A stretch of 64,000 bases of DNA from Roseibacillus sp. (lineage in GTDB: Bacteria > Verrucomicrobiota > Verrucomicrobiia > Verrucomicrobiales > Akkermansiaceae): the NCBI GenBank assembly GCA_051251855.1, contig JBPOGI010000001.1, forward strand, positions 1,664,001 through 1,728,000, written 5' to 3'. Shown one piece after another: positions 21,001 to 27,000 of this stretch. The position numbers are program-made. The number at the start of each line of letters is the position of its first letter. Within the stretch, counting starts at the first letter, position 1.

Positions 21001-24000
21001 CGACCAGAGACTCGCCTCGCTTGCTATGCTCGGAAAGGAAGTCTTCAAACATGCCGTCACGCGCATGAAGCAGTCAGCCGAAACCGTTCTCGAACGCGCC
21101 GGCATTTCCTCCGAAGAGGTCAAACTCGTCATTCCCCATCAAGCGAATCTCCGCATCATCGATGCCATCGCCGACCGTCTTACCGTGCCCAAGGACCGTG
21201 TTTTCACCAACCTTCAGAAATACGGTAATACCTCCGCCGCTGCCGTCGCCATTGCCTTAGACGAAGCCCATCGTACTGGACGTTTCGAGCGTGGAGACAA
21301 GATCGTCCTCGTCGTCTTCGGTGCTGGCCTCACATGGGCCGCCGCCGCTATCGAATGGTAGCGCTGGACCCGGCAACCCGTTCCTGACGGGCACTTCTAA
21401 ACTCCCACTTCTTGCTTGGGACCCTCAACCACTGGTGGTGCTGGCGGAGCAGCTGGAACCAGTTCTGGCGTCACAGTCACCTCAGACACCTCCGTCCCAC
21501 GCAAAAATTTAACCACTTCATCTTCTCCCTCTTTTAGATAGAAGAAAGCGTTGAGCGCATCCGAGTAACTTCGAATCGGACGCTCGCCTATCTGCAGAAG
21601 AATATCCCCCTTCACAATGCCAGCCTTTGCTGCCGGAGACGCTTGTCGCACCGCCTGCACTACCGCAAACGGATCACTCGCCAAAAGCTCTACCCCAAAC
21701 CAACTCCGCTGAACTACCCCGTCAATGACCGTCGCTCCTTGAATTCTTTTCACCACCTCCACGGGGTAGGCAAAACTCCCGTTTCCGAATTCCACTACCT
21801 TCCGATAATTAATGGCCACCAGTCGCCCCGCCGAATCAAATAGCGGATGCCCCAAAGCAGGATTCAGATCATCCCTATGATGAGCACGGAACAATTCGAG
21901 AGGGAGAGGCTTCTCATTGTATTCGCTCTCTCGACTCACAAAGCGAGAAAGAGAGGTATCGCCCTCCACGCCGAGGTAAAGAACATCCCCAGGAAGCAAC
22001 GAAAGTGAACTGCCTAGTTCGACAGGCTTCGTTCTCAATCCTTCGGCCATAGGGACACGAACCAAAGTCAGTCGGCTCACCGGATCATGCGCAACCAATT
22101 TCACTGGCTCGGTCTGGTACCTTCCCGAGCGAAAATCAACTGTCGCCTCAGTAACAACGATCCCCAATCCATTCTCATCCAAGAAAATCACCTCGGACTT
22201 CGCCTGTCCGGGCCCCTCCTTTTTATTGAAGAAAACCGAGCTCGAAAACTCCTGTGCCGCCAACGAAAAAACGCTCCCACTCGCAACGAGGAGAACGCTC
22301 ACTATCAGAGTTCCAAAACTAGAACTCACTCGGAAGAATTTCGCGCGATTCGTCGCTGCGGTCCTGGCCCGGAGCATCGGGTGTGGCAGTTTCCAATTCG
22401 ACATGCTGTAACTTACTACCTTCTGGAAGAAAGTCTTCTGTCTCTTTTGCAAAACCCGAGGAATCTTTCGTGCCCAGCGTTCCAAAAAATCCGAGAGCAA
22501 GAACAGCATAGGCCACTCCGGCTCCAATAGCCCACTTAGCAGCCCCTAAGTCCTGAAACCATTCTGTGAAACGGCTCCAAACAGAACTTGTGCTCGAACT
22601 CGCAACAGTCTGACGCTGACGACGGTGAAATTCATCCAAAAAGTCCTCGAAGTAGCCATCAACAGGCTGCTCGTAGTTCTTAAGACGTAAGAGACGTTGG
22701 AGGTCTTCCAACTCGTCAGCTGGGATGTCTTGGGTATCGGTCATGTCAGAAAACTTTCGCAAAATTATCAAAAAAAATTAATTTAGCAATCTTAAACTTC
22801 AGCAGGCCTCAGGCGAAACTCTTCCAAGTGTCCCTGAAGCTGCTTATGAGCGTAAAATAGCCTCGAGCGAACGGTCCCCTCCGAGACACCCAGAACCCGG
22901 CTGATTTCAGCATGGGGAATTCCTTGGATATCAAACATTGTCACGACAGCTCTATGGTCCTTCGACAAAGCTTGCAGGGCATCGTTCAATTTTTCTTGTA
23001 AAGAGTGGACATCGCTCTGTTTCCGAGGATTGGCGCGATTAGTATAATCAACGAATGCGGGGTCGTTTTGAATCCCCGAATCAACCTCATCGAGACTGCT
23101 CGCCATTCTCCGCTTTCGCTTTTTGAGAAAGTTCAGCGTCATATTGGTCCCGATCGCGTAAATCCAAGTGTAGAACGTCGATTTCCCCTGAAATCGGCCC
23201 AAGGACCGAAACGCTTTCGCAAAGACATCCTGCAAGAGGTCGTTAGTATCATCCTTGTTCGACGTCATGTTGTAAATCAGCCCGTAAAGCTTGGGACTGT
23301 ATTTTACAATCAACTCATCAAAGGCACGAGTATCCCCGGCTTGGGCTCTCTCGACCAACTCAAGATCGGGATCTATTTTACGAACGATACTCATTCACTA
23401 CTAACAAAGGGTGGCTATAGGGTAGGACTCTCGACGGAACTGTCAAAAGCAGAGCGCACGTTCCGTGGCATCAACAGAAACCTCTACCCTCGCAAAGTCG
23501 TGGTCACCACGACCCCTTCACAATTGCTCAAAATCGGCTTCTCCACCTCGACCTTCACTGCACGTGCACCAAATTCACCTACCACCAAGACCGCAATCTC
23601 TTCCGCCAAAGTCTCGATGAGCTTGCGAGGTCTTTCCCCCACCAACGCCTTAATGGCTTCGGTCACCTCGTAGTAGTCGATGGTTCCCATAATTTCATCC
23701 CCAAGACCACTGATTCCGTTTCTCGTTTCGATAGTCAAACTCACTTTGATATCTTGCGACTTCTCACGCTCCTCGTCCGGCACTCCGATAAAGACCGGCA
23801 ATCTTAGCTTCCTCACCACAATATCAGCGCGCACCGACTGCAGCACCGGAACACAAAGCGCGGGCAACTCCCCCACATGAGGCAAAAGCACCTGCGGAAA
23901 GGCCTTTGCCAACCTTTCGACAGGGTCATAGCCAGATAGGACTGCCACTGAGACCACCCCCCCAGATTGAGCAGCATGAATATCGTGAACCATGTCACCC

Positions 24001-27000
24001 ACATAGGCAGTCTCGGCACTCACAAGCGCATACTTACCCGTCACCTCCGCCATCTTCTCCCGCTTATCCAACACCCCCGCGTAAATCCCCTCAAAATAAT
24101 GGGTGAGACCGAAACTCTCGGCCTGCCTCAGCAAGGCCTCCTCATTCATGCTCGAAAGCACAAAGAGACGCAGTCCCTTTTGCTTAGCATCTTCGAGAAA
24201 CTTCCGCGTATACTCCAAAGGCTGAACGAGATGTTCGGCTTCAAAAAACGCCTCCTTAAACAGAACCTCCAGATCAGCCAAGGACTGCTCTGGCAAGAAT
24301 TCCTCATAAAATTCTGGATAAGGCAACCGGAAGTCACGCCGGAAGTCATCCGCCGAAAAAGCAGACTTTCCGTGCGCTTCAAAGACAACATTGGTCGCGA
24401 CCAATGTTGCGGTGAAGTCGTCCACCAACGTGCCCGACCAGTCCAAAATGAGATTTCGAATCATAAATTATCCTGTAATCAACCGTACCTCTCGTACAGC
24501 CTCTTTTCCTAGCTCTTTTTGCACCTTACGCAAAAGTTCGCCACGCGATTGCTCCAGGTGAAAACGCATCGCTGGCTGCAGGACTCGCAGAACGAGAACT
24601 CCGCGCTTGAGCGAAATCACCTCAGTCTGAGCCGCTACGAAATCACCCGCGACGGCTTTCCAACCCTCACGGATTCGGCCTTCCTCAACGCCATCGGCGA
24701 TTTTCAAGCCTCCCAAAATGGCACTGACCCAGTCAGCAGCCTTTGAGCAATTTTTCTCTGTAGGCATGGGAACATCTCCCCCTTGCCAATCACGCACAAC
24801 AGGCCTTGTTGAATAGACCTGACGCTTATCGCGCGACTTCTTCATTCCCCATCATCGCCAATGGCCTCGACAGGACAGCCTTCCATCGCTTCCTCGCATT
24901 GCTCTCTTTCCTCGTCAGACTCGGGCTGCTTAAAAACGTAGGAGTAGCCCTCATCTTCCTGACGGGTAAAATTTGCGGGAGCTGTTTCGCGACAGAGGTC
25001 GCAATCAATGCACTGGGTATCTACGTAAAAGATCCCCTTGATGTTCTCCTCATGTTTATCGTCTTTATCAGCCATTAGTATCGTTAGGTTGCTGCAGAAG
25101 GTGTCCGTCAAGTCCGGTTACGTTGCAACAGTTTTTTTAGTCTTTCCTAAATTGTCTTGATGGGATTTCGGGACTCGCCAAGAGCCGTCACCCTCCATAA
25201 AGTCCCGCCCACCACTATGAGCCGTCGGCGCAAGCGCAAAAAACTGAACTCTTTGGAGACCAAAGGCAGTGATAAACAAGAGGTCGTTTCTTCCCACGAG
25301 AATAAGCCTGAACAGCTTTCACCAACAAAAAAAACGCCTTCAACATCGCCTGAAGTCCAGCCTCTTCCTTCCAAGAGAATCGATAACAAAAGCGATCTCG
25401 GCGAAGAGTTCGATTTGGAACTCGATGATGACTTTACCGAAACCGAGACAAACTCTTCTGAGAATAAAATATCTCTTCCTTCGAGCGAAAATAAGACGGA
25501 AATGCGTAGTCTCCGGAGGCCAAGCGAGCCCTCCAAAAGTGAGAAACCGCTCGCAGACGAAGCCTCTGAATCGACGAAAATGCGGCGGATTGCAAAGTCC
25601 GCTGAAAAACGCAGCCCTCACGAAGTCGACCTTAGCCCCCTTGATGACGAAGTAGACCAAAAGAAAAACTCTAAATCTGAGGTAATCTCCACACCTGAAC
25701 TAAGCTCCAAGCCTCAGGAAGAACCCCAACCTGAGCAACAAAAAGCACCTCAAGTTGAAGAGAGCCATCCTGACACTCCCCCTCTCACCCCTGAGGCGAA
25801 CAAAGCCGACTCAGAGAAATTCTCGTTTCGCACCTTAGTTCAGAACTCGTTGGGCTCTTTGTCCCTCATTGAGCAAGCATCATTAGGAGCTCTGACAGTC
25901 ATCCTCGTCGTTGCCGCCTTTTGGTCCACTTCGGTAGTCTCCGCCCGTATCCCCAATACTATCATAGCTTCGAAGTTGAAATACCCCCTCAAGGGTGAAG
26001 CTGTTGTACTCGCCAGCTACGAAAGCTATTGGCGAAGCCCCATCCGTGAAGGGGAAAATATCGACGAGGGTGTTTCCGAGTCCATTGAGATCATCCCAGA
26101 AGTCAAAGTTTCACTCGACTCCAATTCGAAAGCCAAAGCACTTCGATTTCTGTTTCGCGATGAGGAAGGCCGCTATGTAGGCGACTCCTCAACTGTAAAA
26201 ATATCAGGTTCCACATTCCTCCCCTCCGAAAACGTGACCTCCTCCACGAAGGGAAAAAGCGCCATTATTCGCTCCACGACCGGATTTGAACACGAAGGAG
26301 AGTTGATTTCCTATCTCGCCGACGAAACCTTTCAATGGGAGATCGTAATTCTCGAATCTAAAGACGGTATCGAATACACCGAATTCATGGCCATCCCAAT
26401 TTCAGCAAATCGCAAAGACAACTCATGACCGAAGCATCTCAAGCCCCAAACGTGCGCCCCGAAGAAGGTTGGCACGTCCTCCATCTCTACTATCAAGTCG
26501 ATCACGCTCAATGGGCGACCCTTTCACGTGACGAACAACTCGAGGCAAAAACCAACCTTACCGAGCTCATCCAAGAGATCCGGTCATTTCCTGAGACTCA
26601 ACTGCTCGCCTTTGCGGTCACAACTCCCAAGGCAGATATCGGGTTCATGCTTTTGACCCCCGATTTGGTGGCTGCCACTCATTTCGAAAAGCGCCTCACC
26701 CTCTCCCTCGGGCCCGAGGTCCTTGCCCCAGCTTACTCTTACCTTTCTCAAACCGAACGCTCGGAATACACTACCACCCGCGAGCAATACTCAGCGGAGA
26801 CACTCATCGCCGAACAAGGACTCGCCGAGAAGAGCGAAGAACACCAAACAGCACTCAAGGAGTTCGACGAGCGCATGGAAAAATATTCCCAGCACCGGCT
26901 CTACCCAGTCCTCCCGGATTGGCCAGTCGTTTGCTTCTACCCCATGTCTAAGCGACGCGGCAGTCACCCCGACTACAACTGGTATGGCACCGAATACGAC

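Follow-up and report, generated by a model that had tools for sequence, protein, structure and literature searches.

Does a gene that joins a HAD phosphatase to dihydroneopterin aldolase (FolB) supply the folate dephosphorylation just ahead of that aldolase? The question is raised by a locus of a Roseibacillus sp. genome, in a window of 64,000 nucleotides (the whole stretch of DNA analysed here). This second dephosphorylation, which the earlier note on this DNA had held to lack a dedicated enzyme in most bacteria, is indeed still attributed to a nonspecific phosphatase in passages of three papers (PMC1971073, 2007; PMC4161248, 2014; PMC8925076, 2022). Were a dedicated enzyme to exist, a gap would be filled for a large bacterial group that includes a culturable gut commensal, Akkermansia muciniphila. 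Judging from sequence, we regard the HAD domain of the fusion as a candidate dihydroneopterin-phosphate phosphatase feeding FolB, with a probability of roughly 0.6.

Layout of the fusion and its folate context

One open frame joins an N-terminal C1-cap HAD to FolB; the features of the locus are as follows.

23484..24464, minus strand: HAD-FolB fusion gene, 326 aa (open frame, Pfam domains, AlphaFold2 model)
23856..24464, minus strand: HAD domain, aa 1-203, with C1 helical cap and phosphoglycolate-phosphatase-like fold (PF13419, Foldseek match)
24417..24443, minus strand: motif I and hinge, D8-W-S-G-T-L-V-D15-D16 (alignment)
24150..24152, minus strand: motif II, Ser105 (Ser or Thr nearly invariant in the alignment)
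24063..24065, minus strand: motif III, Lys134 (100% in 146 HAD-FolB and 145 Nudix-bearing proteins)
23982..23999, minus strand: motif IV, G156-D157-M-V-H160-D161, Mg-binding Asps and invariant His (alignment)
23823..23855, minus strand: short linker, aa 204-214, the site of the Nudix domain in relatives (domain layouts, model)
23502..23822, minus strand: FolB domain, aa 215-321, with E232, Q237, Y264, E284 and K309 invariant (PF02152, alignments)
24468..24845, minus strand: DciA-family gene ending 3 nt ahead of the fusion; block neighbour, outside the module (PF05258)
24842..25075, minus strand: ferredoxin gene overlapping the dciA start; block neighbour (PF13370)
22792..23394, minus strand: ECF sigma factor (RpoE-like), then a 150-aa ORF and a PDZ protease; block neighbours (profile matches)

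Both Pfam HAD_2 (71.9 bits at aa 6-175, cut-off 23.8) and Hydrolase exceed their cut-offs for the N-terminal domain, as does Pfam FolB at aa 215-321 (81 bits, cut-off 31.8), and the AlphaFold2 model of the protein comprises two folded domains with a mean pLDDT of 94.6. The fusion was recovered full-length and in a single frame from all four other genomes of the genus, and 146 HAD+FolB proteins were found among the relatives retrieved; it is therefore not an assembly artefact. No Rfam match was found at window positions 15000-35000, promoter and terminator scans around the locus performed no better than chance, ESM Atlas look-alikes of the protein bore generic names only, and searches of a plasmid database returned only generic Nudix and HAD matches.

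The C-terminal domain is, as the earlier note had it, the only FolB of the genome (95.4% complete). It carries a PF02152/TIGR00526 domain with the conserved Glu, Tyr, Glu and Lys. Its score on the equivalog model TIGR00525 (64 bits) falls below the cut-off of 72.15; the FolB of an unfused relative scores 64.3, which marks this FolB lineage as divergent. Assignment as FolX is contradicted by PRK11245 (47.5 vs 152 bits), by the presence of a single FolB-fold gene in the genome, and by the FolB tree, which places E. coli FolX outside the clade of the fusion. FolE, FolK and FolP are present above their NCBIfam cut-offs, and the PTPS of the genome is of the QueD type (CxxxHGH) with no PTPS-III motif. 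Together with the sole FolB, this complement implies that both dephosphorylations are required.

An altered motif I in the HAD domain

The N-terminal domain has the attributes of the C1-cap HAD superfamily: a Rossmannoid core with a helical cap, and D8, S105, K134 and D157/D161 in place. Its best structural match (Foldseek/VIA) is 2ah5, with a Z of 26.0 and an rmsd of 2.0 over 204 aligned residues at 18% identity. The "intact DxxxT" of the earlier note holds to the letter (D8-W-S-G-T12). The DxDxT motif of phosphatases, by contrast, is broken, with Ser10 in place of the second Asp of motif I. The change is shared across the family: motif I could be located in 134 representatives and reads DWSG in 130 of them, and an Asp at +8 (Asp16), at the cap hinge, is near-invariant across the HAD relatives. 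D8, K134, D157, H160 and D161 are kept in 97-100% of 146 HAD-FolB and 145 Nudix-bearing proteins; a convergent change in the Nudix-less fusions was sought, and no distinct active-site change was found between these two sets.

The +2 Asp is the usual general acid/base of HADs, and hydrolysis of alkyl phosphate monoesters normally requires it. We suggest that the hinge Asp16 may stand in for it; if so, the reciprocal Ser(+2)/Asp(+8) would represent a new catalytic layout among HAD phosphatases. The replacement of the general-acid Asp by Ser in nearly all members could also signify a catalytically weak or dead domain that holds pterin phosphate or regulates FolB. That reading is highly improbable, as the nucleophile, the Lys and both Mg-binding Asps are kept at 97-100%, stand-alone copies included, and E. 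coli YihX, an active glucose-1-phosphatase according to the relevant part of PMC8938923, works without a +2 Asp.

Named subfamilies within the superfamily fit poorly. The best NCBIfam phosphoglycolate phosphatase (PGP) score is 39.8 against a cut-off of 225 bits, and the fusion HAD is only seventh of eight matches in the genome to E. coli Gph. Phosphonoacetaldehyde hydrolase likewise has no +2 Asp, but TIGR01422 gives 23.8 vs 220 bits and a conserved cap Lys is absent. The PGP scores bear on a route in which the HAD would act after the aldolase, FolB cleaving dihydroneopterin monophosphate and the HAD dephosphorylating the resulting glycolaldehyde phosphate (or phosphoglycolate). The closest families and folds are indeed phosphoglycolate-phosphatase-like C1 HADs acting on small substrates, a sister-group HAD (L263) lies directly behind a RuBisCO gene, and the best PDB sequence match of the FolB domain is FolX, a binder of phosphorylated pterin. 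We nevertheless consider this route quite unlikely: every PGP model remains far below cut-off, six canonical-type HADs of this genome are closer to E. coli Gph, the FolBs of HAD-less relatives share the same clade and the same residues, and no paper in the literature searched combines all elements of the route.

Linkage of HAD, Nudix and folB in relatives

The pattern reported in the earlier note (fusion, tandem genes, HAD apart, folB alone) was independently reproduced among 151 genomes of the order. A single copy of the HAD is present in 106 of these; in 78 of the 106 it is joined to folB or lies beside it, as HAD-FolB (31), HAD-Nudix-FolB (4), HAD-Nudix then folB (24) or HAD then folB (19); such counts include kin genomes and hence are not independent. 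As these layouts indicate, a Nudix hydrolase lies between HAD and FolB in relatives, either in a HAD-Nudix protein followed by folB or within one HAD-Nudix-FolB protein. It was found in 33 of the 151 genomes, directly behind the HAD in 32 and before folB at a contig end in one. The HAD-Nudix-FolB order matches the two dephosphorylations ahead of the aldolase, which strengthens the case for a phosphatase role. The module, with its Nudix box (PF00293) and its linkage to folate genes, plausibly performs the FolQ/NudB step. It reaches no FolQ/NudB cut-off (24-30 vs 103 bits on PRK09438, NudB) and scores highest on NudI/MutT-type models, every one below cut-off.

An objection raised with the initial observation, that the pair merely sits in a conserved block, does not hold, since the linkage persists outside the Fdx-DciA-RpoE block. 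When the 80 best of 527 genome loci were examined, folB was the very next gene in 70 and block genes were seen in 19; the genes flanking 57 such loci sort into 35 groups on the upstream side and 36 on the downstream side. A query made up of the HAD alone, taken from the sister group, retrieved 67 metagenome loci of PVC type: in 54 of them folB is fused to the HAD or is the next gene, in 10 the contig breaks off, and 3 lack folB. Four HAD-folB pairs that are unfused and Nudix-less, with overlapping stop and start codons, are situated away from the block. The unit thus persists amid unrelated flanks, and gene-block inertia was rejected as the only explanation of the linkage. Another class has the unit too (genome G154), and so do 5 of the 14 genomes of a small separate phylum; in one case the gene that follows encodes an SDR with the TGxxxRxG motif, described as FolM-type in a section of PMC1971073. 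One conceivable reading is that the unit in this phylum took up a host folB independently. The FolB tree groups the FolBs of this phylum with that of E. coli and not with the Verrucomicrobiia clade, but the branch that joins them is weak (60/22), and nested HAD losses confound the one-clade test.

HAD and FolB have fused directly on several occasions: at least eight changes are required on the HAD tree, and a single clade of such fusions is rejected (AU p 5e-55). One is present in A. muciniphila, named "HAD hydrolase-like protein" or "phosphoglycolate phosphatase" in public records. Against its weight as evidence, repeated fusion could arise mechanically, by deletion of the Nudix between adjacent genes. 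Two longer representatives seemed to carry FolB ahead of the HAD, but do not: the N-terminal part of P0284 is an Smr domain, and that of P0325 has no annotation.

The link is also broken in many genomes. The HAD was not detected in 40 of the 145 folB-bearing genomes of the order (39, plus one at a contig end), some of which show a clean Fdx-DciA-folB-rpoE join; FolP is kept in all five HAD-less genomes tested, and no substitute phosphatase adjoins folB among the selected neighbours scanned in HAD-less genomes. In 27 genomes of the order, mostly of family f4, the HAD lies away from folB (4 with Nudix), as it does in all four genomes of family f13, and at phylum level the HAD was found in 22 and FolB in 141 of 151 genomes. 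Co-loss with the pathway was considered for three genomes of genus g2 that lack HAD-FolB: they retain FolK (3/3), FolP (2/3) and a QueD-type PTPS, so that pathway loss is not shown by absence of the fusion. A sister DWSG group, including members named Woesearchaeota, Aenigmarchaeota and Patescibacteria, lacks folB at all six loci that were informative, and a scan of 30 neighbours revealed no folate gene.

These exceptions could be reconciled with nucleotide house-cleaning, in which HAD-Nudix would degrade damaged or surplus nucleotides from triphosphate through monophosphate to nucleoside, folate being served by the Nudix alone or by neither, and the HAD staying with folB by operon inertia. 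The sister group, one member of which (P0323) is fused to a different Nudix, the intact HADs far from folB in f4 and f13, the HAD losses in folate-competent genomes and the NudI/MutT-type affinities of the Nudix all agree with this scheme. It is nonetheless unlikely, on balance, because HAD-folB coupling survives loss of the Nudix in the order sample (31 fused, 19 unfused) and unfused outside the block in the four metagenome loci, and because the pair is retained in more than one order, and in another class and another phylum, despite turnover of its flanks.

Proposed reaction sequence and comparison with known systems

The candidacy of the HAD as dihydroneopterin-phosphate phosphatase, as first proposed for this locus, gains from the intervening Nudix module and from linkage beyond the block, and loses from the missing general-acid Asp, the dispensability of the HAD in many folate-competent relatives and the absence of the partner Nudix here. 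In the proposed sequence the HAD would, with Mg, take the last phosphate off 7,8-dihydroneopterin 3'-phosphate through a phospho-Asp8 intermediate, and the fused FolB would then split dihydroneopterin into 6-hydroxymethyl-7,8-dihydropterin and glycolaldehyde. The ancestral form would have been a HAD-Nudix plus folB unit, its Nudix carrying out the FolQ step (triphosphate to monophosphate), from which the Nudix was presumably deleted in this lineage as HAD became joined to FolB.

With the Nudix deleted, the first step would have to come from a housekeeping Nudix or from the HAD itself. The latter would strip all three phosphates of dihydroneopterin triphosphate stepwise, replacing FolQ too. The partner Nudix is missing from this genome and from 31 of 31 genus-g2 genomes, folE, folK and folP here have no Nudix ORF nearer than about 3.5 kb, and the lack of a +2 Asp would suit phosphoanhydrides, which can release their leaving groups unaided by an acid, as in P-type ATPase chemistry. 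Such an activity is distinctly improbable, given five other Nudix proteins in the genome, the lack of a distinct active-site change between fusions and Nudix-bearing proteins, and the DWSG motif that both share. A broader proposal, tentative and as a whole rather doubtful, is that Verrucomicrobiota, in their DWSG HADs, possess the first phosphatase family dedicated to dihydroneopterin phosphate, with an acid/base Asp relocated to the cap hinge (+8) out of motif I (+2); triple fusions would convert dihydroneopterin triphosphate to 6-hydroxymethyldihydropterin on one polypeptide, and Nudix-less fusions, here and in A. muciniphila, may strip all three phosphates.

Among known enzymes, the C1-cap Gph/PGP-type HADs are closest in structure: SP0104 (2ah5), 3mc1, 2hsz and 2nyv share the fold (Z 24-26, rmsd 2.0-2.5 over about 200 residues, about 18-22% identity), the nucleophile Asp, the motif II Ser/Thr, the motif III Lys and the motif IV GDxxxD. 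The fusion HAD differs in having DWSGT for DxDGT, a hinge Asp for Ser/Thr, an invariant His in motif IV, and a FolB joined to it. E. coli YihX (HAD4), an alpha-glucose-1-phosphatase, shares the absence of the +2 Asp (DLGNV) but is distant (E about 1e-4), has Gly at +2 where the fusion has Ser, lacks the Asp at +8, and acts on a sugar 1-phosphate whose leaving group is better. The FolB domain has the tunnel fold and the five invariant residues of its family, which do not discriminate it from FolX, and differs in forming the C-terminal domain of a fusion protein.

A phosphohydrolase physically tied to folB, as here, is known from FolQ of Lactococcus lactis, NudB of E. coli and the FolQ-FolB fusion of Parachlamydia (listed in Table 2 of PMC1971073). 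No HAD is described in those systems, whereas this fusion has no Nudix; the Nudix of its relatives, at 28% over 67 aa to E. coli NudB, belongs to a separate subfamily. A HAD phosphatase of the thiamin pathway was reportedly described by Hasnain et al. in 2016, and HADs are likewise assigned to the phosphatase step of riboflavin synthesis. Fusion evidence served to assign HADs to "missing" thiamin-synthesis phosphatase steps in Table 4 of PMC4921024, whose Table S8 (Additional file 1) is said to give more than seven FolB fusions. The literature searched, with most subscription papers outside its coverage, gave no description of a HAD-FolB fusion, though Table S8 may include it. Although the thiamin and riboflavin HADs belong to other pathways and another HAD subfamily and have been assayed, and the fusion HAD is known from sequence, the logic is the same: a HAD joined to a vitamin-pathway enzyme would fill an orphan dephosphorylation.

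A fused HAD-FolB protein in a folate-pathway genome

The fusion announced by the earlier note is real: a single ORF encodes both domains, HAD_2 (residues 6-175) and FolB (215-321), each exceeding its Pfam cut-off, and the AlphaFold2 model built from an 80-sequence alignment shows two folded domains (mean pLDDT 94.6).

Features of the locus
23484-24464, minus strand: HAD-FolB ORF, 326 aa
Gene block around the fusion: ferredoxin, dciA, HAD-folB, ECF sigma factor, 150-aa ORF, PDZ protease

The HAD half resembles C1-cap, phosphoglycolate-phosphatase-like structures (top match 2ah5, Z 26.0, rmsd 2.0, 204 aligned), and a structure search with the C-terminal half returned FolB structures. 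The nearest named homologues are Roseibacillus proteins of 65-71% identity. Two other ORFs of the window, 17815-19284 (489 aa) and 25157-26428 (423 aa), have no Pfam match.

As had been claimed, this C-terminal domain is the only FolB found in the source genome, which is 95.4% complete. FolE, FolK and FolP all score over their NCBIfam cut-offs, and the sole PTPS carries a CxxxHGH motif, which we take to mark the QueD type and not the PTPS-III that bypasses FolB. This gene set leads us to expect the canonical folate route, for which both dephosphorylations ahead of FolB are required. With a score of 64, the FolB domain misses the TIGR00525 equivalog cut-off of 72.15, and against FolX it falls well short (47.5 vs 152). 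Both E. coli FolB and E. coli FolX have the Glu, Gln, Tyr, Glu and Lys that are conserved in this domain; we name the domain an aldolase because it is the sole such domain in a genome with FolK and FolP. The source genome (G000) also encodes a third pterin-binding-domain protein (G000:C8:374664-375419), besides FolP and a 962-codon frame, and a second DHPS-like gene occurs in five relatives as well. A 444-aa ORF (G000:C1:247942-249276) has a C-terminal Nudix domain, its N-terminal part resembling, by eye, an rRNA dimethyltransferase.

The HAD, Nudix and FolB modules

In many relatives some 140 additional residues after the HAD form a Nudix domain, and HAD-FolB belongs to a three-module unit of HAD, Nudix and FolB. 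Fusion, adjacent pair, separated HAD and lone folB, the pattern proposed earlier, were all seen in 151 genomes of the order Verrucomicrobiales, where the HAD, its count checked by profile, is single-copy in 106.

Arrangements in the order
HAD-FolB fusion: 31 of 106 HAD genomes
HAD-Nudix-FolB in one frame: 4 of 106
HAD-Nudix then folB: 24 of 106 (in one, a stop separates HAD from Nudix)
HAD then folB, without Nudix: 19 of 106
HAD-Nudix, folB elsewhere: 4 of 106
HAD and folB apart: 23 of 106
HAD only: 1 of 106
folB without HAD: 39 of 151 genomes
Nudix-folB at contig end: 1 of 151
Neither HAD nor folB: 5 of 151

The Nudix, present in 33 of the 151 genomes, always lies immediately after the HAD save in one truncated case. 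It resembles FolQ in its tie to folB but by score is not a NudB orthologue; FolQ is itself a Nudix tied to folB, and Table 2 of PMC1971073, in the portion available, includes fused FolQ and FolB in Parachlamydia. One representative HAD-Nudix protein (P0284) is preceded by an Smr domain. The order of the unit would mirror the pathway, with the Nudix taking off pyrophosphate, the HAD the last phosphate and FolB the side chain. No partner Nudix was found in the source genome or in any of 31 genus-g2 genomes, where the HAD might conceivably act as a stand-alone triphosphatase; we consider this very unlikely.

The objection that the pair just sits in a conserved block fails on wider sampling: among the best 80 of 527 genome loci from a HAD-Nudix alignment search, folB is immediately next in 70, and block genes were detected at only 19. 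At the remaining loci folB lies 2.2 kb on (1), the contig ends (2) or none is found (7). Titles among these 80 include Limisphaerales, Pedosphaera, Methylacidiphilales, Chthoniobacterales and Luteolibacter, and the flanks of the 57 loci initially counted as linked fall into 35 upstream and 36 downstream groups. A HAD-only query, drawn from a sister group that shares the DWSG motif, gave 67 loci of the Verrucomicrobiota type, by score, among the best 80 of 540 metagenome loci; folB is fused or next in 54 of the 67, with a contig edge in 10 and none in 3. At four metagenome loci the HAD and folB are separate neighbouring genes without a Nudix, their stop and start codons overlap, and no block gene is present; three of these loci have a 320-codon upstream ORF in common and probably represent one lineage. 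The unit also occurs in another class (genome G154) and in a second, small phylum, where 5 of 14 genomes have it. In genome G301 an SDR with TGAARRLG comes after the unit; the top NCBIfam match of this SDR, under cut-off, is dihydropteridine/dihydrofolate reductase. The G154 locus (L125:2835-5255) has about 460 more open codons upstream in the HAD-Nudix frame, for which Pfam gives no match, and its folB is followed by a canonical DxD HAD.

Mapped on a HAD tree of 93 rows, direct HAD-FolB fusion takes no fewer than 8 changes and presence of the Nudix takes 16; once three outgroup rows and two long branches had been removed, placing all 21 HAD-FolB rows in one clade was rejected (AU p 5e-55). 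Since the deepest branches of the HAD clade carry HAD-Nudix, mostly with folB next, the form in the window looks most like the outcome of a Nudix deletion. Fusion proteins of these loci have identical public records under the names Akkermansia muciniphila (WP_295977916.1, WP_354831179.1) and Sulfuriroseicoccus oceanibius (WP_235203329.1), as does a triple fusion under Prosthecobacter sp. (WP_300193862.1); the annotations are HAD-like protein, phosphoglycolate phosphatase or NUDIX protein.

Active site of the HAD domain

D8, S105, K134, D157 and D161 are all found in the HAD domain of the fusion, and D8, K134, D157, H160 and D161 are 97-100% conserved across 146 HAD-FolB and 145 Nudix-bearing proteins. 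The DxxxT motif described as intact is so in its D and T, but motif I reads DWSGT, with Ser where the phosphatase DxD has its second Asp; DWSG occurs in 130 of the 134 representatives with the motif matched (147 examined). Among motif-I instances in the sequences gathered here, Ser at +2 accompanies Asp at +8 in 215 of 217, which are one family and not independent, and Asp at +2 accompanies Ser/Thr at +8 in 11 of 12 and Asp at +8 in none. In beta-phosphoglucomutase, T16 contacts D10. The +8 position corresponds to T16, a hinge residue of that enzyme, in which D10 is the general acid/base (available text of PMC6713671). Judging from sequence, Asp16 may now serve as the acid/base instead. The missing Asp could suggest a non-catalytic HAD, which we regard as most improbable: E. 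coli YihX, annotated as glucose-1-phosphatase and described as highly active in the accessible part of PMC8938923, also lacks the +2 Asp, so that this loss alone need not make the enzyme inactive. A sister family with the motif DWNGT (Asn at +2, Asp/Glu at +8) occurs in five genomes of other classes (loci L120-L124), adjoining ORFs of about 470-500 codons.

Loss of the HAD and its proposed role

The HAD is missing from all 19 folB loci fetched from the 39 HAD-less genomes of the order, several reading ferredoxin-dciA-folB-rpoE, and FolP is retained in all five HAD-less genomes tested; the HAD is dispensable in the order. In family f4, folB lies mostly beside rpoE with the HAD elsewhere (10 of 23 folB loci inspected), and the two are also split in all four f13 genomes. 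In the Verrucomicrobiota sample, the HAD occurs in 22 and FolB in 141 of 151 genomes; no phosphatase was found among 33 neighbours scanned at 20 folB loci from its HAD-less genomes, neighbours that include folP, folK and SDRs. The sister DWSG group, with three named members (Woesearchaeota, Aenigmarchaeota, Patescibacteria), lacks folB at all 6 informative loci, with no folate gene among 30 neighbours; the DWSG motif by itself thus does not mean folate.

Dispensability of the HAD fits the known redundancy of the step and also an unrelated role. Nucleotide house-cleaning is an unlikely explanation in our judgement, and clearance of glycolaldehyde phosphate a quite unlikely one. We favour the HAD as a candidate dihydroneopterin-phosphate phosphatase, with a probability of roughly 0.6.

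Several other arrangements were encountered. One sister-group DWSG HAD immediately follows a RuBisCO large-subunit gene (L263:2-1235), and in genus g16 (L045, L046, L085) the DWSG HAD, away from folB, immediately precedes a second, canonical HAD gene. In three genomes of family f13 (L130:3276-4184 of G268; L132/L133 of G234 and G250) a 303-aa ORF has FolB as its C-terminal domain, and in G268 the N-terminal part of this ORF corresponds to a circularly permuted YpsA SLOG domain (PF12694); the HAD of these three genomes is divergent from a LOG/SLOG-family gene. In three genus-g2 genomes (G042, G090, G118) neither FolB nor HAD was found, though FolK is kept in 3/3, FolP in 2/3, and their PTPS has a CxxxHGH motif.

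In the portions available, PMC1971073 and PMC4161248 assign the phosphate removal to a nonspecific phosphatase, PMC8925076 terms the step unresolved in Streptococcus thermophilus, and PMC9544542 gives just 'a phosphatase' for plants. No description of a HAD-FolB fusion was found in the literature searched, whose coverage leaves out most subscription papers, nor in the accessible parts of PMC5041015 or PMC13257207. The available text of PMC4921024 places FolB in more than seven fusion events and tabulates HAD fusions that solved thiamin steps. Although it falls in no assayed family, the HAD of the window is like, in logic, the HADs that fill orphan steps of other vitamin pathways.
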